Shown here: positions 8,614 through 42,312 of the stretch, in pieces
How positions within the stretch are numbered: position 1 is the stretch's first letter
Layout: the number at the start of each line of letters is the position of its first letter
Assembly (NCBI GenBank): GCA_028865345.1
Contig: JAGWKL010000005.1
Coordinates: forward strand, 21,577 to 85,576
Origin: Candidatus Omnitrophota bacterium
GTDB lineage: Bacteria; Omnitrophota; Gorgyraeia; Zapsychrales; Fredricksoniimonadaceae
Length of the DNA: 64,000 nt
Reading direction: 5' to 3'
The notes under the pieces: generated by a model
What the model saw: only the letters and a program-made list of their open reading frames with translations
Database searches by the model: none
Told to the model about the DNA's origin: nothing
Position numbers and translations under genes: made by a program

Positions 8614-10290
8614 ATGTCTGATATCAGAAAGTTCTCCCGTTTGGTTGTCGACGGCAATGACCGCGCACCCAACCGGTCCATGCTGCGCGCCACCGGGTTC
8701 AAGGATGAGGATTTTGGCAAAGCCCAAATCGGCGTGGTTTCCACCTGGAGCATGCTCACCCCCTGCAACATGCACATTGATAAATTGGCCGCCAAGGCGG
8801 TGGAGGGGGTTGACGCCGCCGGCGGCAAGGGCATCATTTTCGGCACCATCACCGTGGCCGACGGCATTTCCATGGGCACCGAGGGCATGAAGTATTCCCT
8901 GGTTTCCCGCGAGGTGATCGCGGATTCCGTGGAAACGGTCGCCGGATGCGAAGGCTTCGACGGGCTGGTGGCCGTGGGCGGCTGCGACAAGAACATGCCC
9001 GGTTGTGTGATCGCCATGGCCCGCCTGAACCGTCCGTCGGTGTTTGTTTATGGCGGCACCATTTTGCCCGGCTGCCTGCATGGACAGAACCTGGACATCG
9101 TTTCCGTATTTGAAGCGGTTGGCAAACATGCCGCCCGGAAAATTTCCGACCAGGAATTAAAAGATATCGAAAGCTGCGCCATACCGGGTCCCGGTTCATG
9201 CGGGGGGATGTACACGGCCAATACCATGGCCAGCGCCATCGAGGCTCTGGGCATGAGTCTTCCCAACAGCTCCATGCAAATTGCCGTGTCCCGGGAGAAA
9301 CAATTGGATTGTTTTAATGCCGGCGCCGCCGTCCTGGATTTATTGAAACGGAATCTCAGGCCCCGCGACATCATGACCAAAAAAGCTTTTGAAAATGCCA
9401 TTTGCGTGGTCACCGCCTTGGGCGGATCGACGAATGCCGTTTTGCATCTCATGGCCATTGCCCATGCGGCAGGCGTCAAATTAAACCTCGATGATTTCAC
9501 CCGCGTGAGCAAAAAAGTTCCGGTGTTGGCCGACCTTAAGCCCAGCGGCCGTTTTGTAACGGCGGAATTGGCGGCCATCGGCGGGCTTTTGCCGTTGATG
9601 AAAATGCTTTTGGACAAAGGCCTGTTGCACGGCGAGTGCATGACCGTGACAGGAAAAACCATGCGTGCCAATTTAGCTGATGTCAAACCATACCCCGCGG
9701 GCCAAGAGATCATCAGGCCGTTGGATAACCCCATTAAGAAGGAAGGCCATCTGGTCATTTTATATGGTAATCTTGCTCCTGAGGGTTCGGTAGCCAAGAT
9801 CACCGGCAAGGAAGGGTTGTCTTTCAGCGGGCGGGCCAAGGTTTTTGATTCGGAAGAAAAGGCGCTCAAAGCCATATTAGGCGGCAAAATTGTCAAGGGG
9901 GATGTGGTAGTGGTCCGCTATGAAGGCCCCCGCGGCGGTCCCGGCATGCGCGAGATGCTTTCTCCCACATCGGCCATTGCGGGCCGGGGACTCGGCAAGG
10001 ATGTCGCCTTGATCACCGACGGGCGGTTTTCCGGAGGTTCACACGGTTTTGTGGTAGGGCACATCACGCCCGAGGCTTTTAACGGCGGGCTTTTGGGTAT
10101 CGTCAAAAACGGCGATACCATCACCATTGACGCCGTCAAAAGGCAGATCGATCTTCTCCTCCCTGCGGCGGAAATCAAGAAGCGCCAAAAAGCCTGGGAA
10201 GCGCCAAAACCAAAATATACCCGCGGTGTCTTGGCCAAGTACGCTAAATTGGTCACCAGCGCCTCCAGTGGTGCAGTGACGGACAAATAA
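8614..10290 (+). CDS. ilvD: Dihydroxy-acid dehydratase.
   Basis: Matches the IlvD/Edd family throughout (CDKNMPG, SGGSHG). The ATG at 8614 comes straight after the leuD stop. Confidence 0.93.
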
Positions 10291-16798: not shown

Positions 16799-18835
16799 AT
16801 GTCAGCCCTGCCTTCATTTTTTAACAATAAGCTGCCCATCTTAAAGCAGATCCCCATTTTCCATGGGCTTAACTGGTTTGAATTAAACCGTGTCAGCCGC
16901 CATGTCGAGATCGTTGATTTCAACAAGGGGGACATCATTTGCCTGCAGGGTGCGCCCGCGGACGCTTTTTATGCTTTGGTCTCAGGGAGGGTCTATTCTT
17001 ACGTGTCCGGCCAGGCGGGAGAGAAGCAGGATGTGGATTTCATCCTGCGCGGGATGTCCTTCGGCATCATCTCGGCGCTGACAGGAGAAAACCATTCCCA
17101 TACGTACGAAGCGATCAATGATTCCGTCGTCATCAGGATCAACAAGGATAATTTTTCCAAGCTTCTTCAATCCATTCCCAAACTGGCGGTGGCCCTGAGC
17201 CAGAGCTTGTCCCTTCGTATGCGCAGCCAGGTCACGCACACAAGGTCAGCCCAGGAATGTACCATTATTGCCGTTTATGCGCCCGTTGCCGGCTCAGGGG
17301 CTTCCACCTACGCCGCGAATTTGGCGCTCAACCTTAAGGAACAGACGGGAAAGAAAATTTTATTGTTGAGCCTCTCGTCGGACAAGGATGAAGAACGCAG
17401 GGACTTAAGCGAGATCATCGAGGACGACCATCTGATCCTGGGTGCCATCACCAGAGGGGTCCTGCCGGTGGACCTTTTAAGTGTCAGGTTCGACGCGCAA
17501 AATCCGATGCCGGCGGGAAAGATCAGCCGGTTTGTGGCCGCACCCGTCAATGATTATCATTATATTGTCCTGGATTTGCCCAACGAGATGGATGATGTGG
17601 TCATGAAAACTCTTACCCAATCGGACGTCATCCACCTGGTCAGCCTCGACAATGAAAAAAATTTGGAGGCCACCCGCCATGTGATCGACAAGCTGGCGGG
17701 CCGCCTGAAGGAGAGGTTCCGTGCCGACCGCGTGCAGGTCATCATCGGCGGGGTCAATACCGAAAACCGGCTCGTTCCCCAAGAGATCAAGAAAATCCTC
17801 AACTATGATGTCTTTTTGGTTTTACCGCATTTGCAGAGCGCGGAATTTGCTTATAAAAAAGTCGCCCCTGGTTTTGCCTTTGTAGAAGTCGACGCCAAAA
17901 GCGAATATGCCAAAACCATACGGCGGCTTTCGCGCCAGATCAGCCGGGTCATGGTGGGGTTGGTCCTGGGAGGCGGTGCTGCCCTCGGCATGGCGCATAT
18001 CGGCGTTATTCGGGTCCTGGAGCGGGAAGGAATACCTGTTGATGTGGTGGTGGGAAGCAGCATGGGCGCCCTGATAGCCAGCCTGTGGGCCGTAGGGAAT
18101 AACGCTGCTTCCCTGGAAGAGTTCGGCCGCGAGTTTGAAAATAAATCGGCCCTTTTGCATGTGTGCGATCCCATCTTCCCCGTTGCCGGTCTCATCGGCG
18201 GAGAGGGGATCGTCCACTGGCTTAAAGGCAAATTGGGCGGCAAGACCTTCCATGACGGTAAAATCCCTTTGAGGGTTGTGACCTATGATCTTTTCCACCG
18301 CAAGGAGGTGGTTGTCAGCGACGGCCTTCTGGTCGACGCGGTGCGTAAAAGTGTCGCCATTCCGGGCGTCATCACGCCGGTCATGGAAGGCAGGCAGATG
18401 ATCATCGACGGAGGCGTTTTAAACCCTTTGCCCACCAATGTGCTGGCGGACATGGGTGTCAAAAAGATCATCGCGGTCAATGTGCTGCAATCGCCCGAAG
18501 AAGTGGACTGGTCGCAAAAGAAAGCGGACGAAGATATTGCCAAAAGTTTTGATGTCTCTTTTTCCAGGCACCCTTTCAAATTCCTTGGGTTCAGGATGGG
18601 CTGGCTTTTGTCCAGGATGCTCACGCCCAATATCGCCGACATCGTCGTCCGTACACTGCAGGCCTCGGAATACGTGATTGCAGAAACCAGCGCCAAGCAG
18701 GCGGATGTTTTGATCCATCCGGATTTGAGAGGGATCAATTGGTTTGAATTGTACAAAGTCAATGAATTGATCCAACGCGGTGAAGAAGCTGCTCAAAAAG
18801 CCCTGCCTGCCATCAAGGCTCTGGTCAATAAATAG
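16799..18835 (+). CDS. NTE-like protein. It has an N-terminal cyclic-nucleotide-binding domain, a degenerate ParA/MinD-like middle region and a patatin-like phospholipase domain.
   Basis: cNMP beta-barrel (FYALVSGRV...GMSFG). Patatin motifs GGGAALG, GxSxG (GSSMG) and DGG (IIDGGV). Confidence 0.8.
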   Translation: MSALPSFFNNKLPILKQIPIFHGLNWFELNRVSRHVEIVDFNKGDIICLQGAPADAFYALVSGRVYSYVSGQAGEKQDVDFILRGMSFGIISALTGENHSHTYEAINDSVVIRINKDNFSKLLQSIPKLAVALSQSLSLRMRSQVTHTRSAQECTIIAVYAPVAGSGASTYAANLALNLKEQTGKKILLLSLSSDKDEERRDLSEIIEDDHLILGAITRGVLPVDLLSVRFDAQNPMPAGKISRFVAAPVNDYHYIVLDLPNEMDDVVMKTLTQSDVIHLVSLDNEKNLEATRHVIDKLAGRLKERFRADRVQVIIGGVNTENRLVPQEIKKILNYDVFLVLPHLQSAEFAYKKVAPGFAFVEVDAKSEYAKTIRRLSRQISRVMVGLVLGGGAALGMAHIGVIRVLEREGIPVDVVVGSSMGALIASLWAVGNNAASLEEFGREFENKSALLHVCDPIFPVAGLIGGEGIVHWLKGKLGGKTFHDGKIPLRVVTYDLFHRKEVVVSDGLLVDAVRKSVAIPGVITPVMEGRQMIIDGGVLNPLPTNVLADMGVKKIIAVNVLQSPEEVDWSQKKADEDIAKSFDVSFSRHPFKFLGFRMGWLLSRMLTPNIADIVVRTLQASEYVIAETSAKQADVLIHPDLRGINWFELYKVNELIQRGEEAAQKALPAIKALVNK

Positions 18836-19059
18836 CCCTCTCGCACGCCCCCAACTCTTTTAGCTCTTATCGCACCTTAAGGTGCTGATTTATACAAAAA
18901 GTATACGCGGATTTACAAATTATCATAACTACATATATTCCAATGTATTATATTCTTCTTGTAAATTGTTAAGATTTGACAAACATTAAATATATGTTAT
19001 CCTTTCAGCATTAACCATTTCTTAACGTGCCAGTGACTATAAATTCATTTAGGGGATAA
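18836..19059 (+). promoter_or_regulatory. AT-rich (about 30% GC) upstream region of the giant gene, with a palindrome GCACCTTAAGGTGC.
   Basis: Base composition differs sharply from the flanking sequence. The SD AGGGGA precedes the ATG at 19060. Confidence 0.4.
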
Positions 19060-22000
19060 TTGACCATGCTTAGAAAAATTTTGAGCCTGACCGTTATTTT
19101 CTGTTTTTTTCTCACAACTTTAACCCCCTATCCCAAAGCCCACGCAGATATAATGGCCGCCCTGCCGGCGCCCGGGACCATGGTCAATTTAAGCCCGGCT
19201 TACCAGCCTGTATTGATCAAGGGTTTGACCGTTCATAAAGACAATCCGTTCCTTTTTGATTTCATGGTGGATACCGGCAACAGCGGCATGACCGGCGCCC
19301 GGCTGAAGAAAGAAAGCGACCGCCTGGTCAAATACTTTTTCGCCTGCTTGACCATCCCCGAAAAAGATCTGTGGGTCAACCTTTCCCCATATGAAAAGAA
19401 CCGCATGATCCCCAGAGCCCTTGGTCAGACCGCGTTGGGACGCGATCTGTTGGCCGAAGATTATATCCTTAAACAGTTGACTGCTTCCCTAATATATCCC
19501 GAAAAAGACCTTGGCAGGACCTTCTGGAACAGGGTTTATGCAAAAGCCCGGCAGATGTACGGCACCACCCAGATCCCGGTGAATACCTTCAATAAGGTAT
19601 GGATCGTTGCTGATAAAGCTACTGTATATGAGCATGGCCAGACGGCGTTCGTGGTCAGGGGACACCTGAAGGTGATGCTTGAAAAAGATTATTTGGCCTT
19701 GAAGAAACATATGGCGGGTGCTGTTGAAGGCCGGGCGGGGTCTTCCCGGACCAATGACCTTGGCTCCCAGATTGTGCGCGAGATCGTCCTGCCCGAGATC
19801 GATAAAGAAGTGAACACGGGCAGGAATTTCGTTGCCCTGCGTCAGATATTTAATTCTCTTATCCTGGCCGCGTGGTACAAGAAGGAGCTCAAGCAGGCCT
19901 TGTTGAACCGGGTTTATGCCGATAAGAGCACCGTCAAAGGCATGAACCTGGCCGACCCTTCCGTCAAGGAAATGATCTATCAACGCTATCTGGAAGCGTA
20001 CAAGAAGGGTGTGTTCAATTATGTCAAGGAGTATACCCGGGCCGACGGCCAGGTGGTCCCCAGAAAATATTTTTCCGGCGGGTTTGTTTCAGATTTGAAA
20101 ATGACCGTAGACAAAGACCCTGCGGATGCGGCCCAGGCCGCCGAGCCGACGGGGAATATGGTGGACGTGTCCGTCGGGCTGAAGGTCAAAACCGGCGACC
20201 AGGCCATGACGCCCCAGACCAATGATTTCGATAATGCGTATGTCCTCTGGGACGAGCAGACCTCCCAGTTGGATGAACATACGGGCAAGGGCCTGGTCGG
20301 TGGAAAATCTTATCAGGCGGCCAGGTATTGGAAAGACGAACCGGCCAATAATCTGCGCAGTTTTTCCGCCACCGCCAAGGCTTCCATCGATTTTTTGAAT
20401 TCCAACCAGGATCTGCTTCCCGAGATATACCGTATCACCCGCGACCTTGATGCTTCCGATGAAACGGCCAGGGAAGAGGCCGGCGCCAGGATCCGAGCCT
20501 TGATCACGGGTACGCCCGTTCCTGCTGCCATTGAACAGGCCGTCCGCCAGGGCTACCGCAGATTGGTCAGCATCACGGACCAGCCGTTGGTGGCGGTGCG
20601 CAGCTCCGGGAAGGCGGAGGATATTTCCCTGAATGTCCCGGAACTGGCCGGGATCAATATGGGCGCCAATGCCGGGCAGCATGACACCTTCCTTGGGGAA
20701 ATGGGCGCAGATGCGGTCATTAAACGCTGGAGGGACTGTATCGCTTCGCTGTATACGGCCCGGGTCCTTGGCTACCGCGACAGCATGATGGTCTTCAGCG
20801 CCTTCGGCAAGATTCTGCCCAACAAACAATTGACCGCGGAGATCATTGCCAAGCTAAAGACAGGCAACGATGAGGACAGGCTTGTGGCCCGCGCCATTGA
20901 GGAAAAGAACATAGGGATCATCTCTTCTTTAAGATTATTGCATGCCTTGCAGCGCAACGGTTTTCAGGAAGCGGCGAAGCTGGTCAGTGAAGCGCGCGAG
21001 GATTTCATCAAGATCGCAAACATAGCCATGGGGGTCACGATCATGCCCATGGCCGGCGTTGACATTTCCTTCGTGGCCTTCGGGCATGACATGACCTCCT
21101 ACTGGACGGCGAAGGATTTCCAGGACGTTTCTCCCGAGGAATATCTTAATAAAGGCCGGGTGGTGACTGTCACCACCAATTACGGCCTGGGGGAATCTAT
21201 CGTGCAGGGGGCTGCCATGCCCGATACGTTTCTGGTGCACATTTTTAAAGATTCAAGCGGGGAACATGTCAATATCCTTTCCCGGACCCTGGGCACGAAA
21301 AGCGTGCAGACCGTATATGTCGCCCCTGTCATGGAGGCTCTCGGTCTCAACCATGCTTCGGTGAAACTGTTCCTGGAATTATTGGGGGCCGGGGATGTCA
21401 CGGCCTTCAGCGGCTTGGGCAACGCAAAGGATTATAACGAGATGCATCTTAAGAAGGGGGCCGATCTGGTCGTCATCAAAGACGTCCTGGAACGGTTGAT
21501 CAAAGAAAAGGTCGATGGGACATCCTCTGTGAAGATCACGGCCGATGAGCTGTCCCAATTCACGTATACCAGGGAAGAATTGGATAAACTGGCGCACCTT
21601 TTAAAGGCGTTCCAGAAGGACCCGGAGATCAAGACCATGTTCACGGACGTCCCGGAGGAGTTGCGCAACCAGTTTTCGGCCAGCGATGAGCAGGTCCGCA
21701 AGATCGCCCTGGAGTTCATGAAAAAGGCCAAAGATTTTCACGATCTCGTGGATATGGAAGGCGCCGTGGGCAAGAATTTCAGCCGGCTCAACGTCGCGGT
21801 GACGACCCAGCGCCGCCCCTCCAATGTGGACAAAGGCGACGTCAAGGAACCACGGATGATCAATATCCATTACACCTATGTGAAGGCCGGCGACGTCGAT
21901 AAGATCCGTGCCGGGAAGGAACGCATCACCAAGGCCGACGGACAGTTGACGAACATTGTGGTCGGTGAACAACTGGTCCAGGGCATCCCCACCCGCAACA

Positions 22001-25000
22001 GTTTTTCGGGGACGATTTACAAGATCGATGACTCCAAGGACCTGACGCCCCAATTTGAGGAGATCAAACGTCTGGCCGATGAAGGCCATAAGATCATTAT
22101 CCGTACCAATGAGACGACTCCGGACTATATCGATGTGTTGAAATATAAAAATGTGGTGGGGGTCATCGCCAATTCAGGCGGGGCGACCTCGCACGCGGCG
22201 GTCGTTTCCAGGGAGCTTGGTATCGCCACGGTGGTGGGCATTCAGAGCTGGCTGGACAGGCTGGCCGATACCCTGGGCCCGCAGAAGGCTATGGAGATCA
22301 AGGAATATCTCGATACGACCGGGAGCATTGTGACCGTGGACGCCAATGCCGGCGAAGAAACGGGTTTGGGTACCGTTTATGCAGGCCAGTTGCCCATCAG
22401 TACGCGCAACATCGAGATAGACATATCACGCCTTCCTTATATTTACACCAAGATCGGCTATATCATGGGCATGCCCCATCCGATGCTGGCCATGTCTAAA
22501 ATGTCTCAATATAAGGGATATTACGGGGTGGCGCTGATGCGCGGGGAGTTCGCTTACGCGGAGGAAGGCATCAATCCGCGGGCGGGGCGCGCCTATGATC
22601 TGATGCTGGTGGATGATTATTTGAAGACGTACAGGGACAACAATGCAGCCAAAGCTTATTATGAAAAATTGGGGCGGGCGGAAAGAGAAGCCCTCGACAC
22701 CTTCAGGACCCTTCTTGAACGAAGGGCGGATCTGCGCGCCCGGGGGCAGGACATTCCTTTGGATGAAACACAACGGTACATCGAGCAGTTCAAGAATAAG
22801 CGTCCGGGGGCTTTTTTAAAGAGCCTCTCCACCTACCAGCAGACGGACATTGAGCTGCTGAGGGAGCACAGCGAAGATGTGGGGAAATTGACCAAACAGA
22901 TCGTCGGGTATTTGTCGTACAATGAGTTTTTTGAAGCGGTGCACGGCGGGGCGGTGGCGACCATGGCCGCAGCCAACAGCCAGGAAAACGATACCGTCGT
23001 TTATCGCAGCATCGACTTCAAGAAAAACGAAGCGGCCGAACTGATCGGCTCCAAGATCTTTGACCCTATCCCCGAGCCCGCCACCATGATCGGTGAGCGC
23101 GGCGCCCGCTGGCTTTTAAAGCCGGAGAACAGGGTCATCCTTGTCGAAGAGATCCACATGCTCCTGCGGCAGGTCGACCGGGGTTATAAAAATATCGGTT
23201 TCATGTTCCCCTTTGTGTCTACTCCCCACGAGTTGGACCAGCTTTTGACCATATTGGATAATGAAGAAAGGAGTTTCAGTCTCCAGGAGAACAAACCTTT
23301 ATATTTAAGGGAAGTCGGACAAATGGTGGAACTGCCCAGCAACATCGTGGAGGCAGAACAGTTCATCCAGGTTCTCAAGAGGCACGAAGCCAGGACCAAA
23401 GCGTGGTTCAAGGAGAAGTTTTCCGTGGACATCAAGCGCAGCAGCTTTCTGTCCTTCGGGACCAATGACCTGACTCAGTTGACCCTCGGTGCGGACAGGG
23501 ACAATCCCAAAATGAGGCAATTGTTCAATGAGGCCAACCCCTTTGTCATCGAATCCATCCGCCACGTGGTCAATATGGCCAATAAATACGGGATCAAATG
23601 CGGGCTTTGCGGCCAGGCGCTGGTGAACCTGGTCAATGTGGACCCTGATGCGGCGGAGGAGATCCTCATGCTCCTCGGTTCCACGGGAGGGTATGCCGGG
23701 ACGGACTATCTGGGCACCCTGGCGGCCATCACCCGTTCCGCGAGCGCGACCCTGAAACACGGGGTGGTGGCGGATGAAGTGGCTGCCTCGGCGCAACCGA
23801 TCGCCCTGCACATTGAGTCCACCTTGGAGCACGGGGCGGCCGCCCGTCCTTTGTATCAGGTGACAACCCACGAGGATCTGGACAAAACCTATTTGGGTGA
23901 TTTTATCTTCGTCCATAACGGTATTTTGTCGGGTTTTGAAAAGGACGAGAAGTTAAAGCAGCAGCTTTCCCGTTTGGGGGCCATTATCTACAGCGATGAT
24001 AAACTGGCCGACGTGATCAAGACCGTCAGCAAGACCTTACGCGTGCCGGCCGTTAAGGTGGATGCAGGCGCCGACCGCCTCGCCGCTGTATCTAACGGAG
24101 ATAAAGTCACCATTGATTTCAACCGCCATGCCATTTACAGAGGCGCCCTGGAGGTTTCCATCGATGTGCCTGAAATAGCCAGCAAGATCGACGTCAACGC
24201 CAAACACCATCCGGAATTAAAGCGCATCGACTTTAACGAGACCTTCCGCGCTTCGGACTTGTACAAAAGCCTGGGCATCTATCCGACGGCTTTCCTGGCC
24301 TTTGATGACCCGAAAAAGCAAGGTGAGCTCGACCCTGAGACCATCGCCGAGATCAGGCATTTGATGCGCGAAACGCAGAGTTCTTCGGCCGTAGGAGTCC
24401 TGCGCCATGAGATCCAAAAGAGGATCACCTCTCAAATGGTCCAGCCTGATGCCAGAATGGTTTATGAGACCATGGACCTGCAGAGTGATGATCAGATCAA
24501 GCTGCTGGGCCATAAAGCCATGGGCGCCGTGGAAGAGGTCAACCCGCCCTTAGGGTTCAACGGCCTGGAAGCTTTGATGGACGACCCTCAATTGAGGGAA
24601 CTCTTCAAGGTCGAGATGTCCACCGTCAAGGGGCTGATCGACAAGGGGTATAATATTTCTATTCAATTCAACGGCATCAAGACCCCCAAGAGCCTGCAGG
24701 AGGCCATGGCGATCCTAAAGGAGATCGGCATTGATCCCTCCAAGGTCAAGGTGGGCATGAATACAGCCTGGCCCGGCAATTATCTTTTCCTGCAGGAATA
24801 CCTGGCCCAGGGGCTTTCCTTTGTGACCGTGGATGAAAGGAAGTTGGCCCAAGCGTATCTGGCGGCCGATCTTTATAAGAACGAAAGGGTCCGCGATACT
24901 TATGCATGGAACAATATCAAGGCGGACATGAATTATCCCGAAAGGATGATCGAACAGGCCGTTGCTGATTATTCCGCCAGAAAGCACGATGTCTTCATCC

Positions 25001-25317
25001 GGACCATCCCCTTTGATTCTGCCATGACAGCGCCCCCTGAAATGCCTGTTGCCGCCGTGAGGACGCAAGCGGCCGTCCCGCCGGGCGGTATCGACTTAAA
25101 TACCGCCAACATGGCCATGACGGTGACCAAAGACGCCGACGGCGGAGTAAAGGTGCTTACGCAGTCGAAACAATTGGGCCTTTTGATCGCGCGCATCAAG
25201 ACCAGGGGGGTATTCTCGGCGGACCCTGTCATTATCCGTATCACGCCCATAAGCCGCGCGCAGATATCGCCTTTGTTGGGCTTGCGGGTGTCACCGGCCC
25301 GGTCGGCCCAGGTTTAA
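19060..25317 (+). CDS. Giant (2085 aa) signal-peptide or anchor protein with PEP-utilising-enzyme domains (PPDK/PEPS-like).
   Basis: N-terminal hydrophobic signal. Nucleotide-binding motif VAVRSSGKAEDISLNVPELAG. Phospho-His swivel GGATSHAAVVSRELGIATVVG. TIM-barrel motif FLSFGTNDLTQLTLGADRDN. About 450 aa N-terminal and about 550 aa C-terminal have no clear assignment. Confidence 0.75.
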   Translation: MTMLRKILSLTVIFCFFLTTLTPYPKAHADIMAALPAPGTMVNLSPAYQPVLIKGLTVHKDNPFLFDFMVDTGNSGMTGARLKKESDRLVKYFFACLTIPEKDLWVNLSPYEKNRMIPRALGQTALGRDLLAEDYILKQLTASLIYPEKDLGRTFWNRVYAKARQMYGTTQIPVNTFNKVWIVADKATVYEHGQTAFVVRGHLKVMLEKDYLALKKHMAGAVEGRAGSSRTNDLGSQIVREIVLPEIDKEVNTGRNFVALRQIFNSLILAAWYKKELKQALLNRVYADKSTVKGMNLADPSVKEMIYQRYLEAYKKGVFNYVKEYTRADGQVVPRKYFSGGFVSDLKMTVDKDPADAAQAAEPTGNMVDVSVGLKVKTGDQAMTPQTNDFDNAYVLWDEQTSQLDEHTGKGLVGGKSYQAARYWKDEPANNLRSFSATAKASIDFLNSNQDLLPEIYRITRDLDASDETAREEAGARIRALITGTPVPAAIEQAVRQGYRRLVSITDQPLVAVRSSGKAEDISLNVPELAGINMGANAGQHDTFLGEMGADAVIKRWRDCIASLYTARVLGYRDSMMVFSAFGKILPNKQLTAEIIAKLKTGNDEDRLVARAIEEKNIGIISSLRLLHALQRNGFQEAAKLVSEAREDFIKIANIAMGVTIMPMAGVDISFVAFGHDMTSYWTAKDFQDVSPEEYLNKGRVVTVTTNYGLGESIVQGAAMPDTFLVHIFKDSSGEHVNILSRTLGTKSVQTVYVAPVMEALGLNHASVKLFLELLGAGDVTAFSGLGNAKDYNEMHLKKGADLVVIKDVLERLIKEKVDGTSSVKITADELSQFTYTREELDKLAHLLKAFQKDPEIKTMFTDVPEELRNQFSASDEQVRKIALEFMKKAKDFHDLVDMEGAVGKNFSRLNVAVTTQRRPSNVDKGDVKEPRMINIHYTYVKAGDVDKIRAGKERITKADGQLTNIVVGEQLVQGIPTRNSFSGTIYKIDDSKDLTPQFEEIKRLADEGHKIIIRTNETTPDYIDVLKYKNVVGVIANSGGATSHAAVVSRELGIATVVGIQSWLDRLADTLGPQKAMEIKEYLDTTGSIVTVDANAGEETGLGTVYAGQLPISTRNIEIDISRLPYIYTKIGYIMGMPHPMLAMSKMSQYKGYYGVALMRGEFAYAEEGINPRAGRAYDLMLVDDYLKTYRDNNAAKAYYEKLGRAEREALDTFRTLLERRADLRARGQDIPLDETQRYIEQFKNKRPGAFLKSLSTYQQTDIELLREHSEDVGKLTKQIVGYLSYNEFFEAVHGGAVATMAAANSQENDTVVYRSIDFKKNEAAELIGSKIFDPIPEPATMIGERGARWLLKPENRVILVEEIHMLLRQVDRGYKNIGFMFPFVSTPHELDQLLTILDNEERSFSLQENKPLYLREVGQMVELPSNIVEAEQFIQVLKRHEARTKAWFKEKFSVDIKRSSFLSFGTNDLTQLTLGADRDNPKMRQLFNEANPFVIESIRHVVNMANKYGIKCGLCGQALVNLVNVDPDAAEEILMLLGSTGGYAGTDYLGTLAAITRSASATLKHGVVADEVAASAQPIALHIESTLEHGAAARPLYQVTTHEDLDKTYLGDFIFVHNGILSGFEKDEKLKQQLSRLGAIIYSDDKLADVIKTVSKTLRVPAVKVDAGADRLAAVSNGDKVTIDFNRHAIYRGALEVSIDVPEIASKIDVNAKHHPELKRIDFNETFRASDLYKSLGIYPTAFLAFDDPKKQGELDPETIAEIRHLMRETQSSSAVGVLRHEIQKRITSQMVQPDARMVYETMDLQSDDQIKLLGHKAMGAVEEVNPPLGFNGLEALMDDPQLRELFKVEMSTVKGLIDKGYNISIQFNGIKTPKSLQEAMAILKEIGIDPSKVKVGMNTAWPGNYLFLQEYLAQGLSFVTVDERKLAQAYLAADLYKNERVRDTYAWNNIKADMNYPERMIEQAVADYSARKHDVFIRTIPFDSAMTAPPEMPVAAVRTQAAVPPGGIDLNTANMAMTVTKDADGGVKVLTQSKQLGLLIARIKTRGVFSADPVIIRITPISRAQISPLLGLRVSPARSAQV

Positions 25318-25442
25318 TTTTCTCTCCAGGCGATATTCAGCAATGTTAGCTCTTGCCAAAATGCCCCAATCGTGCTATTCTAAATACGTCAAAAAGTGAA
25401 GTATATAAGCCTTAAAAAGGTTACTGTCAAGGAGTGTTTTAA

Positions 25443-26036
25443 ATGGAAATTAAAACCATGATCCAGAGCACACCCAACCCCAACGCGCTCAAATTCGTAT
25501 TGAATGTACCTGTTAAAACCACCGGCAAGGTCACCTATAAAAATGCCGCCCAATGCGCGCATAATCCGATGGCGGCGGGCTTGTTTACCATCCCCAATAT
25601 CACGGAAGTTTATTTTTTTGACAATTATGTCACCGTGACCCAGGACGGCAGGGTTGATTGGGAAGAAATTGAAGAGCAGATCAAGAAGATCATCCTGGAA
25701 TACGCGCCGGACCACAACCCGGATTTTGAGGTCCAAGAGGAGAAAAAACCTTCGGCGCCTGTTTCCGACAATCCTGAGATCGCCAAGATCAACGCGATTT
25801 TGGACAATACCATCCGCCCCGGGCTTCAAATGGACGGCGGGGACCTTCAGATCGTGAGCTTCGAGGGGACCAATTTGATCGTGAATTACCAGGGGGCGTG
25901 CGGTTCGTGTCCCAGTTCCACCATGGGAACGCTTAAAGTGATCGAGAGCATTTTGCGCGATCAATATAATCCTGAGATCACGGTGCAAACCGAAGGTGGA
26001 ATGATAGGAGGGGACGCCCATGGAGAGCCTTATTAA
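25443..26036 (+). CDS. nfuA: Fe-S cluster assembly scaffold, Nfu type (Nfu_N domain plus NifU-like CxxC domain).
   Basis: C-terminal GACGSCPSSTMGTLK motif. The N-terminal Nfu_N fold precedes it. Confidence 0.75.
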   Translation: MEIKTMIQSTPNPNALKFVLNVPVKTTGKVTYKNAAQCAHNPMAAGLFTIPNITEVYFFDNYVTVTQDGRVDWEEIEEQIKKIILEYAPDHNPDFEVQEEKKPSAPVSDNPEIAKINAILDNTIRPGLQMDGGDLQIVSFEGTNLIVNYQGACGSCPSSTMGTLKVIESILRDQYNPEITVQTEGGMIGGDAHGEPY

Positions 26037-26367
26037 TAAAAAATGCACGCCTTGCGAAGGCGCCGGCAGGGCCTTTACCGCGGATGAGGTCAAGGATCGT
26101 TTGCCGGAAATTCCCGGCTGGAGCATGGGATTTGACGGCAAAACCATCGAACGCGCAATGACGCTCAAGAATTTCATTGCCTGTGTCAATTTTATCAATA
26201 AAATCAAAGACATCGCCGAAGATGAAATGCACCATCCGGATTTGCATTTGACGGGGTATAAGAATTTGAAAGTGGTTTTATATACGCATGCGCTTGGCGG
26301 AGTTACCGAGAATGACTTGATCGTGGCCGCCAAGATCAACCAACAATTGATGGGGAGTCATGTTTAA
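26020..26367 (+). CDS. phhB: Pterin-4a-carbinolamine dehydratase (PCD/DCoH).
   Basis: Signature EMHHPDLHLTGYKNLKVVLYTHALGG. It overlaps nfu by 17 nt and the rrf2 gene by 8 nt. Confidence 0.7.
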   Translation: MESLINKKCTPCEGAGRAFTADEVKDRLPEIPGWSMGFDGKTIERAMTLKNFIACVNFINKIKDIAEDEMHHPDLHLTGYKNLKVVLYTHALGGVTENDLIVAAKINQQLMGSHV

Positions 26368-33080: not shown

Positions 33081-33108
33081 TATATGAAGATCCGCCTTGG
33101 AGCATGCA

Positions 33109-34671
33109 ATGGGTAATCTTATTGTTCTGATTTGGGTGGTTTTTATATTCGCGGCCTCTGTTTTTTTCGGCGGAGCCTCCTTTATAGAACTCATTCAAAA
33201 TGGGAAATTAAGGATTGATAAAGGGTTTTGGCTCTCTTTATCTGCATGTGCGGCGGCGCTCCTGCTTTGTCTTTCGATAGGACCCGCATTCTATCGCGTA
33301 TACCACGATGAACTTGTCTTTATTTCGCAATCCTGGAACATCCTTTTTTCCGGAAGCGCCGGCGTCATCTTAAAAGGAAGCCGGCTGCATCCGGAAATTT
33401 TGGCCCCGTGGACGGCCAATCCGAAACTCCCGGGATTTGCCTGCCTGGAAGCCGTTGTGCTTTTCTTGACAAAAGATTTTACGCACAGTTTTTTTATCAT
33501 GAATATTGCTTTAGGGGTCCTGTCGGTGGCGCTGGTTTACAGGATCGTTTGGCTTTTGACGGCAAGCCATGCGCTGTCCTGGTGGTCGGCCGTTTTTCTG
33601 GCATGCCTGCCTGTGCGCATCACCTATTCCATGTCTGCGGCTTCCGACATCGCCGGGCTTTTTTTCTTTTTGCTCTTTCTTCTTTTTATCGTCGAATACA
33701 GGGGAATGCCGGGCAGGCGCTTTTTGTATGCCGCCATTTTTTGCGGCATATTTAGTGTTTGCATCAAGCCTTTCTACGGAATTCTGACTTTGGCGGGACT
33801 GGCGGTGGCTCTGTCCATGTACCGGCGGGAAAGATTGTTGGACCGGAAAGCCTTTACGCAGGCGTGGGTGGATATCTTTTGTTTGTTCCTTCCGGTCTTG
33901 TGCGCGGTGCCGGTCATGTTCTTGACCGACGAGCAGAAACCTTTTTCCTTGTTGTTTGTGGGACGAAATCTCCAAACAGATATTTTCTATTTATTTTCCA
34001 ATCAACAAAACACCTTTTTAACGGCCGTGGCCGCCGCGGCAGCGGTCGGGACAGGCATTTACTACAGAAAAGGAGGCTTGACAGCCCTATGGGCAGGATG
34101 GCTGGTGGGTGGATTGCTGATCATTTCGGTTTTCTACGCGGGAGGGATTTCCTATCCCGGGCATGCCTATTCGGACCGATACTTCCTTCCCTTGGCATTC
34201 CCGTTCGTATTTTTAGCGGCCCAAGGGATGGTCGGCGTCTTAACGAGGCCAGGCCCCAAGTTTTTAGGGACTGCTTTCTTTTTAATTCTGATCATCAGCG
34301 CTTTTTATGCATCAAAACATTTGACCAGGGAGGCCAAGGAGGGATTTCATTATCAAAAGACACTGATACTCAAACAGGTATTGCCTTTGGTTCCCGATGA
34401 AGCTTATATGCTGGATGCCTGCTCTGCGCTGATCGCAACGATCAGTTCCAAGAAATCGATCCAGACAGAGCTTTTTATACATGGAGATCATCCCAAAGAA
34501 ATTGTTTTCCTTAAAGGGATCGCCGATGATCTGTACAATTCCGACGAACCTAAAAACATGGCGCTGGTCAAGAAGATCCTGAAGGCGGAATACCGCTGTG
34601 AGCCTCTGACAGCTTCACCGGTCGCCGAGCCCGATCTGTCGGCCACACCGTTCCTTTGCGTACGCAAATAA
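33109..34671 (+). CDS. GT-C fold glycosyltransferase (GT39/ArnT/PMT-like) membrane protein.
   Basis: About 11 TM segments and a first-loop YHDE motif. The general topology matches 4-amino-4-deoxy-L-arabinose and protein mannosyl transferases. Confidence 0.55.
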   Translation: MGNLIVLIWVVFIFAASVFFGGASFIELIQNGKLRIDKGFWLSLSACAAALLLCLSIGPAFYRVYHDELVFISQSWNILFSGSAGVILKGSRLHPEILAPWTANPKLPGFACLEAVVLFLTKDFTHSFFIMNIALGVLSVALVYRIVWLLTASHALSWWSAVFLACLPVRITYSMSAASDIAGLFFFLLFLLFIVEYRGMPGRRFLYAAIFCGIFSVCIKPFYGILTLAGLAVALSMYRRERLLDRKAFTQAWVDIFCLFLPVLCAVPVMFLTDEQKPFSLLFVGRNLQTDIFYLFSNQQNTFLTAVAAAAAVGTGIYYRKGGLTALWAGWLVGGLLIISVFYAGGISYPGHAYSDRYFLPLAFPFVFLAAQGMVGVLTRPGPKFLGTAFFLILIISAFYASKHLTREAKEGFHYQKTLILKQVLPLVPDEAYMLDACSALIATISSKKSIQTELFIHGDHPKEIVFLKGIADDLYNSDEPKNMALVKKILKAEYRCEPLTASPVAEPDLSATPFLCVRK

Positions 34672-40428: not shown

Positions 40429-42312
40429 ATGGGGCCCCACCTATACTTTTTTATAGGCACACCTTTGATCGGCATCGCTTTTTTAGATGCCATCTTATTT
40501 TATCTTCTTTTAAAAAATAACCCCCAAAACAGGAACATTAACAAGTCCATTGCCTTCGGCTGCTTTTTTACGGCCTTATATGCTTTTTTTGCAGGTATTG
40601 TGTATATCCGGGCAGGCTTGGGTCTCAACTATACATTTTTTTATAAATGCTGCTGGGCAGGGTGGCTTGCCATGGCACCCATCTATCAATTTGCTTTTTA
40701 TATTAAAGATGACAACAGTAAGAAGGCGATATCTGTCGGCCTTGGGTTATATTTTTTCTGGTTTCTTGCCTTTGCCCTTTGCTTTACGTCCGACTGGATG
40801 GAGCCCGGCGTAAAAAGCCTCATTCCCTATTTTCCCCACTATGGCATTTTAGAAAGGCCTGTACGTTCCATCGGCGGATTCATGTTGCTTTACGCCATTT
40901 ACAAGTTATTCAAGGCCAAGAACGAAGTCAGCGGCATCAAGAAAATACAAACCAGCTATCTTATTTTAGGCTTGATTATTTATGCCCTGGGGGCCATTGT
41001 CACATCTTGTTTTTTGTCCTTGGTCGGCGGCCTTGGATTTGACCCGGCCCTGACATCTTATTTCAGCCTTCCCTGGACCCTTCTTGTTTTTTATGCCATC
41101 ACCCGCTACAGGCTGTTCGATATCCAGATTATCATTTCCAGCGCCTTATCCATTGTCATTTTGACCATTATCCTGGGCGTATTGAACGTCGCCCTGTTCA
41201 GGTTGTTGGAACCGTTGATAGGTTCCACCTGGGCCATTTTTATATCAGTGTTTGTGATCATCATTATTTTCCTGCGGACACCCCTGCGGCGCATGGTGCA
41301 GGGAGGGTTCAGCGACACCCTGCTGGGAGGCAAGTACAATTACCAGGCGATATTAAGGGAATCCACCCGGGCCATTGTCACCATCCTTGACCAGGAGGAA
41401 TTGCTCAATTACCTGGTCCATATTTTGCAGCAAAGTTTTAAAGTCCGCAAGGTCTGCTTGTTTTTAAAGCACGCGGAAGGCCCTTATTATGTCCGTTATC
41501 AATGGGGGATGGGCAAGATTCCTCCGGATTTGCAGTTTTCCGATGAAAAGATCATTGAATGGTTGAAGAAGAACCGGCAGATTTTTATCAAGGAGGAGCA
41601 GCAGGGAATGCTGACCAGAGAAAAGTTCGATCAGCTCTATGATAAGCTCCATTTCATAGAGGCCAACCTGGTCCTGCCCCTGTTTTTTAAAGACAATCTG
41701 ATAGGCTTTCTGACCCTCGGCCCCAGCGACGATGACCGTCCTTATGTCCAAAGCGATATTGATATCCTGATGACCCTGACCGGCCAGACCGCCATCGCCA
41801 TTGAGAACGCCCGCCTCTACACGGAGGCCATCACTGACGGGTTGACCGGTTTATACCATCATAAATATTTCGTCATGCGCCTGACCGAAGAGGTCCAGCG
41901 CGCCCAACGCTACGGCCGGCCTTTAAGTTTATTGTTGCTCGATGTGGACCATTTTAAGAACATCAATGACGTGTGCGGCCACCTGGCGGGAGACAAGGTG
42001 CTGGTGGGAGTGTCAGAATTTATCAAGAAGTCCCACCGCACCACCGATGTGGTGGCGAGGTACGGAGGTGAAGAATTTGCCGTCATCCTTCCGGACACCG
42101 ACAGGGAAGCGGCCTTGATCCCGGCCAGGAGGTTAAGGGAAGCCATTGAAGCCACTGCCTTCGAAGGCAATCTTCTTGTCACGGTCAGCATAGGCCTGGC
42201 CTGTCTGGACCTTAACCGCAAAGAATTGAAGACCGAAGATCTGATAGAGGCTGCGGACAAGGCCCTTTACCGGGCCAAAGAAAACGGCAGGAACCGCATT
42301 GAAATCGCTTGA
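40429..42312 (+). CDS. Membrane sensor diguanylate cyclase (multi-TM N-terminus, GAF, GGDEF).
   Basis: About 8 TM helices, a GAF-like region, and a GGDEF domain with RYGGEEF. Confidence 0.85.
   Translation: MGPHLYFFIGTPLIGIAFLDAILFYLLLKNNPQNRNINKSIAFGCFFTALYAFFAGIVYIRAGLGLNYTFFYKCCWAGWLAMAPIYQFAFYIKDDNSKKAISVGLGLYFFWFLAFALCFTSDWMEPGVKSLIPYFPHYGILERPVRSIGGFMLLYAIYKLFKAKNEVSGIKKIQTSYLILGLIIYALGAIVTSCFLSLVGGLGFDPALTSYFSLPWTLLVFYAITRYRLFDIQIIISSALSIVILTIILGVLNVALFRLLEPLIGSTWAIFISVFVIIIIFLRTPLRRMVQGGFSDTLLGGKYNYQAILRESTRAIVTILDQEELLNYLVHILQQSFKVRKVCLFLKHAEGPYYVRYQWGMGKIPPDLQFSDEKIIEWLKKNRQIFIKEEQQGMLTREKFDQLYDKLHFIEANLVLPLFFKDNLIGFLTLGPSDDDRPYVQSDIDILMTLTGQTAIAIENARLYTEAITDGLTGLYHHKYFVMRLTEEVQRAQRYGRPLSLLLLDVDHFKNINDVCGHLAGDKVLVGVSEFIKKSHRTTDVVARYGGEEFAVILPDTDREAALIPARRLREAIEATAFEGNLLVTVSIGLACLDLNRKELKTEDLIEAADKALYRAKENGRNRIEIA

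Follow-up and report, generated by a model that had tools for sequence, protein, structure and literature searches.

Introduction

Known phosphoenolpyruvate (PEP) synthases of the PpsA type are cytoplasmic homo-oligomers. Here, we describe a gene of Candidatus Omnitrophota bacterium that encodes an enlarged PpsA-type enzyme behind a predicted Sec-type signal peptide and between two conserved modules. The gene is located on a 64,000-nucleotide stretch of contig JAGWKL010000005.1 (GenBank assembly GCA_028865345.1, positions 21,577 to 85,576 of the forward strand), which was analyzed as a whole and is called the window. With the solved PpsA enzymes (PDB entries 2OLS, 8A8E, and 9DAE) the protein shares an ATP-grasp domain, a phospho-histidine swivel, and a PEP/pyruvate-binding barrel in identical order, the catalytic His in a GGxTxHAA motif, and the Arg, Arg, Glu, Asn-Asp, and Cys motifs of the barrel. 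It differs from them by its size of 2083 as opposed to about 800 amino acids, by three conserved insertions and a dead copy of swivel and barrel, and by the addition of a Sec signal, an N-terminal module (N-module), and a C-terminal module (C-module).

MARTX toxins resemble this protein in their conserved ends, their variable modular center, and short sites between modules at which the cargo could be freed. They are secreted without a Sec signal by a type I secretion system (T1SS), contain glycine-rich repeats, and are processed by an internal cysteine protease cleaving after Leu; in the protein described here, Pfam detected neither the Gly-rich A/B/C repeats nor a cysteine protease domain, and a Sec-type signal is present. 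Cargo proteins of the type IX secretion system (T9SS) and dockerin-bearing enzymes likewise combine an N-terminal Sec signal with a small conserved C-terminal domain on unrelated enzymes. However, the C-module of only about 75 amino acids fits no model of Pfam or NCBIfam, be it of the T9SS sorting domain (~80 amino acids), of dockerin (~70 amino acids), or of a C-terminal beta-barrel translocator, and it is predicted as alpha/beta, not beta-sandwich; furthermore, T9SS and cellulosomal systems lack a conserved N-module of 315 amino acids and their cargo is of extracellular type. The adhesin LapA is similar in having a short Ala-rich motif next to a conserved N-terminal module as a possible site for a dedicated protease. 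LapA depends on a T1SS, is cut by LapG at a single di-alanine site (T/P-A-A-G), and carries no enzyme cargo, whereas the protein described here has a [DN]xAM motif at each of its module junctions; no protease was identified in this work.

Within the phylum, two preprints describe giant proteins with signal peptides or transmembrane (TM) helices and tiled metabolic domains (bioRxiv 10.1101/2023.11.21.568195; bioRxiv 10.64898/2026.06.07.730766), and one of them raises C39/S8 peptidase domains as possible agents of cleavage, calling the cleavage points unknown (bioRxiv 10.1101/2023.11.21.568195). The giants (Archaeovorins and multi-enzyme proteins) share with our protein the phylum, an export signal or membrane association, tiled enzymes of cytoplasmic type, and proposed cleavage. 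They differ in having at least 10,000 amino acids, many TM helices, and C39/S8 peptidase or dockerin domains, none of which is found in the protein of 2083 amino acids. Term searches of both preprints met neither an N/C cassette nor a defined cleavage motif in the text so covered. No description of the cassette or of [DN]xAM was found in the full-text literature, in a search whose scope did not include the Kizina 2022 paper on V. archaeovorus.

Results

Architecture of the carrier protein

The single open reading frame (ORF) from 19060 to 25317 on the forward strand comprises 2085 amino acids counted from a TTG codon, and this numbering is used for all residues. Taking layout, cargo, and carrier role jointly, we consider it somewhat probable that the gene product is a PpsA-type enzyme which is exported on a new carrier of Omnitrophota and may be processed. 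The proposed layout consists of a Sec signal peptide, the N-module of about 315 amino acids, a [DN]xAM motif, the cargo, a second [DN]xAM motif, and the C-module of about 75 amino acids (Table 1); the cargo would be an enzyme of the pyruvate,water-dikinase (PEP synthase) type. What is unusual is the carrier and not the enzyme: Pfam, NCBIfam, and PDB comparison and the literature search revealed no counterpart of the carrier family, and the enzyme core is a variant of PpsA.

Table 1. Features of the carrier gene and its upstream region, with positions in the window
Feature	Position	Strand	Basis
Promoter-like site TTGACA-16-TATCCT	18976..19003	+	Consensus scan; consensus match only, no evidence of function
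AGGGGA Shine-Dalgarno (19051-19056) and probable true start ATG (19066-19068)	19051..19068	+	Sequence
Predicted Sec-type signal peptide, aa 1-29, MTMLRKILSLTVIFCFFLTTLTPYPKAHA / D; basic n-region, ~15-residue h-region, P/Y/P breaker, A-H-A site	19060..19146	+	Sequence features
N-module, aa 30-345, ends PRKYFSGGF; conserved head domain, mixed alpha/beta	19147..20094	+	Family comparison
Junction motif 1, D380-Q-A-M383-T	20197..20211	+	Pattern; Met at expected PpsA start
ATP-grasp nucleotide-binding domain, PpsA type, with lineage-specific insertions	20293..22050	+	Pfam PPDK_N aa 412-753; PpsA alignment to ~aa 975
Phospho-histidine swivel, aa 1012-1098; His1045 in GGATSHAAVVSRELG	22093..22353	+	Pfam PF00391, E 4e-15; 2OLS alignment
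PEP/pyruvate-binding TIM barrel, ~aa 1150-1560, insertion ~aa 1189-1268	22507..23739	+	Pfam PF02896; NCBIfam; 2OLS alignment
Degenerate swivel-like domain, aa 1568-1701; SDDKLAD in place of GGxTSH, no phospho-acceptor His	23761..24162	+	Sequence comparison
Degenerate second PEP-utilizers TIM barrel, aa 1727-1985; no counterpart of the Cys motif	24238..25014	+	Pfam, hhalign
Junction motif 2, D1986-S-A-M-T, border of PpsA unit and C-module	25015..25029	+	Pattern
C-module, aa 2007-2085, PPGGIDLNTANMAMTVTKDADGGVKV...PVIIRITPISRAQISPLLGL; conserved ~75-aa tail	25078..25314	+	33-66% identity to family C-termini

The N- and C-modules define a family of Omnitrophota proteins

A homology search with the whole protein retrieved the orthologues and, additionally, more than 2600 Omnitrophota proteins matching just 16-20% of the query. 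As determined by BLAST, only residues 3-345 (55-76% identity, to more than 200 family members) and residues 2005-2080 (33-66%) are shared with these proteins; the middle differs. The original prediction had assigned no family to the first ~450 and the last ~550 residues. Of these, the first ~345 and the last ~80 proved to be conserved modules of a huge uncurated family. The N-module directly follows the signal peptide and has the signature LPxPGTM...WVNLSPYEK...PVNTFNKVWI...PRKYFSGG, and the C-module opens with GGIDLN. Signal peptide and N-module, C-module, and [DN]xAM at the junctions were all found in the query, which marks it as a member of the carrier family.

A HMMER search with residues 1-380 matched 8062 clusters at 50% identity, 6228 of them at E ≤ 1e-30, and the match lay at the protein's own N-terminus in all 150 clusters listed. 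Scanning of one genome per species yielded at least 580 family loci. The best 80 of these were all located in Omnitrophota-type metagenome-assembled genomes (MAGs), several of which harbored four to five of them, and 41 of the 47 complete family ORFs in the genome loci ended with the C-module. In the searches made, the family was seen only in Omnitrophota-type MAGs. A phage origin was rejected, with only three matches among 2.9 million viral contigs (IMG/VR). The window itself contains no second copy of either module.

Neither module matched Pfam, NCBIfam, PADLOC, or PDB sequences, and for the C-module this was so in Pfam and NCBIfam even at E-values up to 1-10. For the N-module, PDB was searched with the sequence and with a profile, in both cases without a match. 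For AlphaFold2 (AF2) modeling, a chimera of the window's own N- and C-modules was aligned to full-length homologues; the C-module was predicted as a small alpha/beta unit with a pLDDT of 72-90.

The cargo between the modules was identified by Pfam. Enzymes carried by other members are transaldolase, malate synthase with isocitrate lyase, enolase with phosphoglycerate kinase (PGK), and PEP carboxykinase (PEPCK) with phosphofructokinase (PFK), and furthermore hexokinase, adenylate kinase, glutamate dehydrogenase, phosphoglucomutase, methyltransferases, and acyl carrier protein (ACP). Cargo other than enzymes includes CheY receivers, helix-turn-helix (HTH) domains, and C-terminal domains of the RNA polymerase alpha subunit (RNAP alpha-CTD); some members carry ankyrin, Macro, or LysM domains.

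Many family-bearing MAGs (e.g., L006, L008, and L012) are deposited as 'uncultured Planctomycetales bacterium', and the N-module is a possible marker for their placement versus Omnitrophota. An antisense ORF of about 300 amino acids inside the N-module coding region was observed at 14 loci of L002-L081 and was the sole recurrent neighbor there; most likely, it is a by-product of conservation on the sense strand.

The cargo of the query is a PpsA-type enzyme

The nucleotide-binding region, the swivel, and the PEP-utilizing barrel recognized in the original prediction are genuine domains: profile hidden Markov models placed all of them far above the Pfam cutoffs, with E 1.5e-35 for PPDK_N (PF01326) and E 1.6e-39 for PEP-utilizers_C (PF02896; best stretch residues 1458-1520). 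Their order from ATP-grasp domain through swivel to PEP/pyruvate barrel is that of PEP synthase. Residue-level alignment with 2OLS matched the ATP-grasp motifs VAVRSSGKAED...AGQHDTFLG and TNYGLGESIVQG (YGLGE..VQG), paired the swivel with GGRTCHAAIIARELG of 2OLS, and matched the barrel motifs RSIDFKKNE, GERGA, MVELPSN, FGTNDLTQ (FGTNDLTQLTLGADRD), and GLCGQ. The swivel loop GGATSHAAV carries the catalytic His, and Thr1043 presumably occupies the position of the regulatory Thr. In PPDK, PpsA, and Enzyme I (EI), pyruvate or PEP is bound by Arg residues of these barrel motifs, which also contribute the Mg2+ ligands and the Cys that donates a proton. Compared with 2OLS, none of the catalytic motifs (His, Thr, Arg, Arg, Glu, Asn-Asp, and Cys) is lost.

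Among the NCBIfam models PEP synthase ranked at the top (357 and 332 bits; best stretch residues 1271-1520), with Enzyme I, PPDK, and Rph far lower; the PPDK equivalog TIGR01828 scored 71 bits against a cutoff of 843. PpsA structures also ranked above PPDK structures in the comparison with PDB sequences, where 2OLS, 8A8E, and 9DAE were the closest solved relatives. The core is probably an active enzyme of PpsA type, although not a proven equivalog. The enlarged PpsA unit of 1600 amino acids was found in about 12 Omnitrophota proteins only; beyond these, the scores dropped from 1309 bits to the 173 bits of ordinary PpsA.

Two relatives of this unit have a different setting. The protein P0218 (2328 amino acids, ENA metagenome) contains the enlarged PpsA unit and the dead module at 46% identity behind a different hydrophobic N-terminus, without N-module, C-module, or [DN]xAM motifs. 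P0219, a fragment of 2085 amino acids encoded on a contig of 2.16 Mb, carries an enolase C-domain followed by a relative of the PpsA unit; hence, two PEP-forming enzymes are present on a single chain.

A degenerate second swivel and barrel

The weaker, degenerate duplicate of swivel and barrel noticed earlier was confirmed. Its barrel matched PEP-utilizers_C at residues 1797-1950 with 28.2 bits against a cutoff of 22.8 (E 1.3e-6), and an hhalign profile of residues 1590-1990, built from 11 orthologues, aligned with the protein's own swivel and barrel at 89% probability (E 2.2e-6, 171 columns). The Arg, Arg, Glu, and Asn positions of the barrel are replaced by E, N, N, and V; judged from these residues and from the missing catalytic His, the second copy is predicted to be dead and unable to catalyze. 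A word-indexed homology search with this module alone retrieved three fragments only, and a [DN]xAM motif between core and dead module does not occur in any orthologue.

PPDK, EI, and PpsA oligomerize via their barrels, which form the homodimer interface. The dead barrel might therefore serve as a built-in partner of the active barrel within one chain, and a tethered or singly delivered chain could then work without a second copy.

The motif [DN]xAM marks the module junctions

The query contains exactly two copies of the motif (DQAMT at residue 380 and DSAMT at residue 1986), which bracket the PpsA unit, with about 0.6 expected by chance; the alignment with the N-terminus of 2OLS starts 14 residues past M383. 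Most orthologues keep a motif at both junctions. In 194 thousand residues of cargo from 202 members, [DN]xAM was found 794 times versus about 46 expected, an approximately 17-fold excess that comprises 17% of all cargo Met residues, and DAAMT alone occurred 47 times versus 0.1 expected in 120 family proteins. The 47 other ORFs of the window contained one copy versus 3.6 expected. The wider form of the motif is [DN]-x-A-M-[T/A], and the residues on either side are unconserved. One to three motifs are present within the first 90 residues past the N-module in 161 of the 202 members, at a median distance of 17 residues.

The third, synonymous codon positions of the motif vary freely and no Shine-Dalgarno sequence lies upstream; hence, the motif is selected as a peptide. 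On the same grounds, a role at the DNA level as recombination site or as internal start preceded by a purine-rich ribosome-binding site was rejected.

In other members the motif likewise borders enzyme domains. In P0036 it directly precedes Enolase_N (at Pfam position 5) and PGK (at position 1), in P0013 it stands on either side of transaldolase, and in P0021 it lies between malate synthase and isocitrate lyase. We take the Met of the motif to correspond to the first Met of the free enzyme, as in MTVINKEY..GKRVLIRPDLN, which resembles E. coli PGK, MLADSEF..DSRGKPTVEV, which resembles enolase, and MTPQTNDFDNAYVLWDE, which resembles PpsA. Processing at [DN]xAM would be the simplest reading of these junctions. 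That the motif is a protease site freeing the cargo with native-like N-termini is a serious possibility, which we stop short of calling probable.

The motifs past the N-module are often preceded by a short strand-like element (e.g., GNMVDVSV) resembling the GGIDLN start of the C-module; the corresponding region of the query comprises residues 346-385 (20095-20214). Additionally, many members have runs of spacers of about 90-110 amino acids, each ending with ...EF[IL]xAQ..DAAM (P0013, residues 460-732; P0015, residues 560-730). Thus, besides marking junctions, the motif stands at the end of a recurrent mini-domain.

Signal peptide and topology

The hydrophobic N-terminus noted earlier is present and ends in an AHA|D site. 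A hydropathy scan revealed a second hydrophobic window only at residues 655-675, inside the ATP-grasp core. Among 172 family N-termini, 170 showed about two positive charges but none that is negative, about 18 uncharged residues in a row, and an AxA-like site; these features are kept family-wide although the peptide sequence itself drifts. From them we infer export by the Sec pathway and cleavage of the signal peptide after AHA29. The final site of the putatively processed protein would be the periplasm, the cell surface, or a host or prey cell. As proposed originally, an export signal of Sec type and a length of 2083 as compared to about 800 amino acids are out of the ordinary for this class of enzymes.

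Start codon and integrity of the gene

The likely start is the ATG at 19066 and not the mechanical ORF start TTG at 19060, which results in a product of 2083 amino acids. The ATG is favored by the AGGGGA Shine-Dalgarno sequence 9 nt upstream, by the NCBI model of the identical protein, which has 2083 amino acids, and by the MFKK... sequence that opens the homologues. The AT-rich spacer upstream of the ORF comprises 225 bp and holds the promoter-like site; a terminator-like hairpin is located at 18872-18885, after the upstream patatin gene.

About 10 independent MAGs or contigs of Omnitrophota encode orthologues of full length, comprising 2068-2843 amino acids with 48-77% identity, and comparison of the genomic loci showed their neighborhoods to be unrelated to one another. 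Since the identical architecture recurs in these settings, an assembly fusion or a frameshift is excluded; the ORF is uninterrupted as predicted, and the frameshift or stop that might have split it into genes of ordinary size was not encountered. The GC content of the gene is that of its flanks, so that a horizontal-transfer island was rejected.

Genomic surroundings

The carrier gene occurs once in the window, among ordinary unfused housekeeping enzymes; its neighbors encode a LeuC-type aconitase, IlvD, AroC, isopropylmalate dehydrogenase (IPMDH), ArgJ/C/H, FabF, IspG, MurB, the Suf system, and others. Directly upstream (16799-18835, +), a protein of 678 amino acids with a cyclic-nucleotide-binding domain and a patatin-like phospholipase is encoded. 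Immediately downstream, on the opposite strand, an ORF of 316 amino acids without Pfam match (25389-26339, −) overlaps an ORF of 197 amino acids (25443-26036, +). A further ORF of 524 amino acids (33097-34671, +) also had no Pfam match, and a GAF-GGDEF diguanylate cyclase is encoded at 40429-42312 (+). The entire 64-kb window is free of tRNA genes, and no Rfam family reached the gathering score in it.

At other loci, two PilZ genes are located upstream of the orthologue P0006 (L085, 1737-2726); c-di-GMP signaling in the form of PilZ genes is reportedly found beside giant genes of Omnitrophota. In Ca. Aceula meridiana (L001), a prepilin peptidase gene (A24; 8803-9594) lies directly upstream of the PpsA-carrier orthologue. 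Ordinary unfused PFK (324 amino acids) and PTS enzyme I are encoded nearby; hence, unfused glycolytic enzymes coexist with the carrier family.

Discussion

The account we favor, an exported and possibly processed PpsA-type enzyme on a carrier, would work as follows. The signal peptide would send the chain through Sec, and the N- and C-modules would act as common handles for one shared downstream machine of secretion, surface anchoring, or assembly. Cutting at [DN]xAM would free an enzyme starting at its native Met. In this enzyme, ATP would phosphorylate His1045 on the swivel, which would carry the phosphate to barrel-bound pyruvate to form PEP, or the reaction would proceed in reverse; the motifs for all these steps are intact, which points to enzyme activity.

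Several points weigh against this account. Export and topology are read from sequence features. PEP synthase needs ATP, which is absent from the classical periplasm and from the outside, and the kinases, RNAP alpha-CTD, HTH, and receiver domains among the cargo are of cytoplasmic type as well. Hence, export would be meaningful only with another cell or some other compartment as its target, unless the signal is used otherwise than predicted. The AF2 model of the combined N- and C-modules is of medium confidence (pLDDT 72.7). In the orthologues P0004 and P0007, one junction motif or both are missing, and beside the best 80 family loci there is neither a protease gene nor a conserved partner gene. 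The core scored below the PEP synthase equivalog cutoffs (NF005057, 356.7 versus 598 bits; TIGR01418, 331.6 versus 739.75 bits), because three conserved insertions split the match into five stretches, and its substrate could differ. Finally, the pseudo-dimer role of the dead barrel is conjectural.

A wider view would be a phylum-wide delivery or polyprotein system of Omnitrophota, in which Sec together with an N-module of novel fold and the small C-module exports strings of complete enzymes of cytoplasmic type, here a self-sufficient PEP synthase, that are cut at [DN]xAM outside the producer cytoplasm. Native-like enzymes might be released on the producer's surface, at a feeding junction, or within the cell of a host or prey, and the motif may provide the cleavage points of the giant proteins. 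We put this forward tentatively and regard it as rather doubtful at present.

Alternatively, the protein may be a membrane-tethered cytoplasmic enzyme with an uncleaved anchor or peripheral helix, modules and PpsA unit being exposed on the cytoplasmic side. It would then be a gluconeogenic PEP synthase located at the membrane, with N- and C-modules organizing a multi-enzyme array in very small cells. The ATP-dependent chemistry of the cargo and its overwhelmingly cytoplasmic type, down to RNAP alpha-CTD, HTH, CheY, and ACP, agree with such a tether, as do the position of the gene among ordinary housekeeping genes and its native GC content. Furthermore, a preprint of 2026 that deals with Omnitrophota proteins from 10 kAA upward also considers the cytoplasmic face for multi-enzyme giants (bioRxiv 10.64898/2026.06.07.730766). 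However, 170 of 172 members have positive charges before an h-region of about 15-18 residues, followed by Pro/Gly and an AxA-like site, which is typical of a cleaved Sec signal with the chain outside and not of an N-out anchor, and a second hydrophobic segment that could return the chain to the inside is missing. Altogether, we consider the tether unlikely.

Less likely again is a particular case of export, the delivered effector. A contact-dependent machine would move the cargo into a host or prey cell, where cutting at [DN]xAM would free the enzyme; the modules would act as translocation or recognition arms like those of MARTX, and PpsA would rewire the central metabolism of the victim. Delivery of this kind would reconcile an export signal with cargo needing a cytoplasm, the junction motifs are positioned to free native-like enzymes, and the ankyrin, Macro, and LysM cargo of some members would also fit. 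The literature describes host-dependent, predatory, or episymbiotic Omnitrophota with T2SS/T4P-like loci (PMC10066038; bioRxiv 10.1101/2023.11.21.568195). On the other hand, recognizable translocation, pore-forming, or protease domains were not found in the protein, the match to NheA being insignificant (E 0.54), and the 80 family loci showed no linkage to secretion genes. Ordinary metabolic enzymes would be odd effectors, and the genome of the window, which codes for many biosynthetic enzymes, is not obviously that of an obligate predator.

We deem it very unlikely that the enzyme-like cargo is used without catalysis as a ligand-binding or adhesive surface module. Half of the swivel and barrel content is already dead, and glycolytic enzymes displayed on the surface serve as adhesins in other bacteria; however, every catalytic motif of the first set is kept in comparison with 2OLS and with orthologues of 48-77% identity, which argues for selection on catalysis.

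The original prediction had suggested a phosphotransferase of the rifampin-phosphotransferase (Rph) type, a small-molecule kinase acting on an extracytoplasmic substrate. Weak ATP-grasp matches to Rph-type models exist (NF041857 and 5hv1), but the NCBIfam scores are well below the cutoffs (NF041857, 76.1 versus 999 bits; NF000283, 43.9 versus 1700 bits). Rph combines an ATP-grasp and a rifampin-binding domain with a C-terminal swivel and lacks the PEP/pyruvate barrel, whereas the query has the PpsA domain order and an intact pyruvate/PEP site; the suggestion was rejected as highly improbable. An artefact in which mis-assembly or sequencing error joined neighboring genes is practically negligible, as no supporting point was found and the architecture recurs at full length in 10 or more MAGs and metagenome contigs that are independent of one another and differ in genomic neighborhood.

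If the favored account of an exported PpsA-type enzyme on a carrier is true, thousands of Omnitrophota proteins share an export or handling cassette that has no counterpart in Pfam, NCBIfam, or PDB. A PEP synthase with a built-in dead barrel would, if true, represent a natural swap of homodimerization for a pseudo-subunit in cis. The motif [DN]xAM offers specific candidate processing sites; published work on giant proteins of Omnitrophota calls the cleavage points unknown (bioRxiv 10.1101/2023.11.21.568195). Glycolytic, gluconeogenic, and ATP-dependent enzymes behind a signal peptide would challenge the assumption that such enzymes are confined to the cytoplasm of the producer, and this bears on how the ultra-small, host-dependent Omnitrophota may feed.

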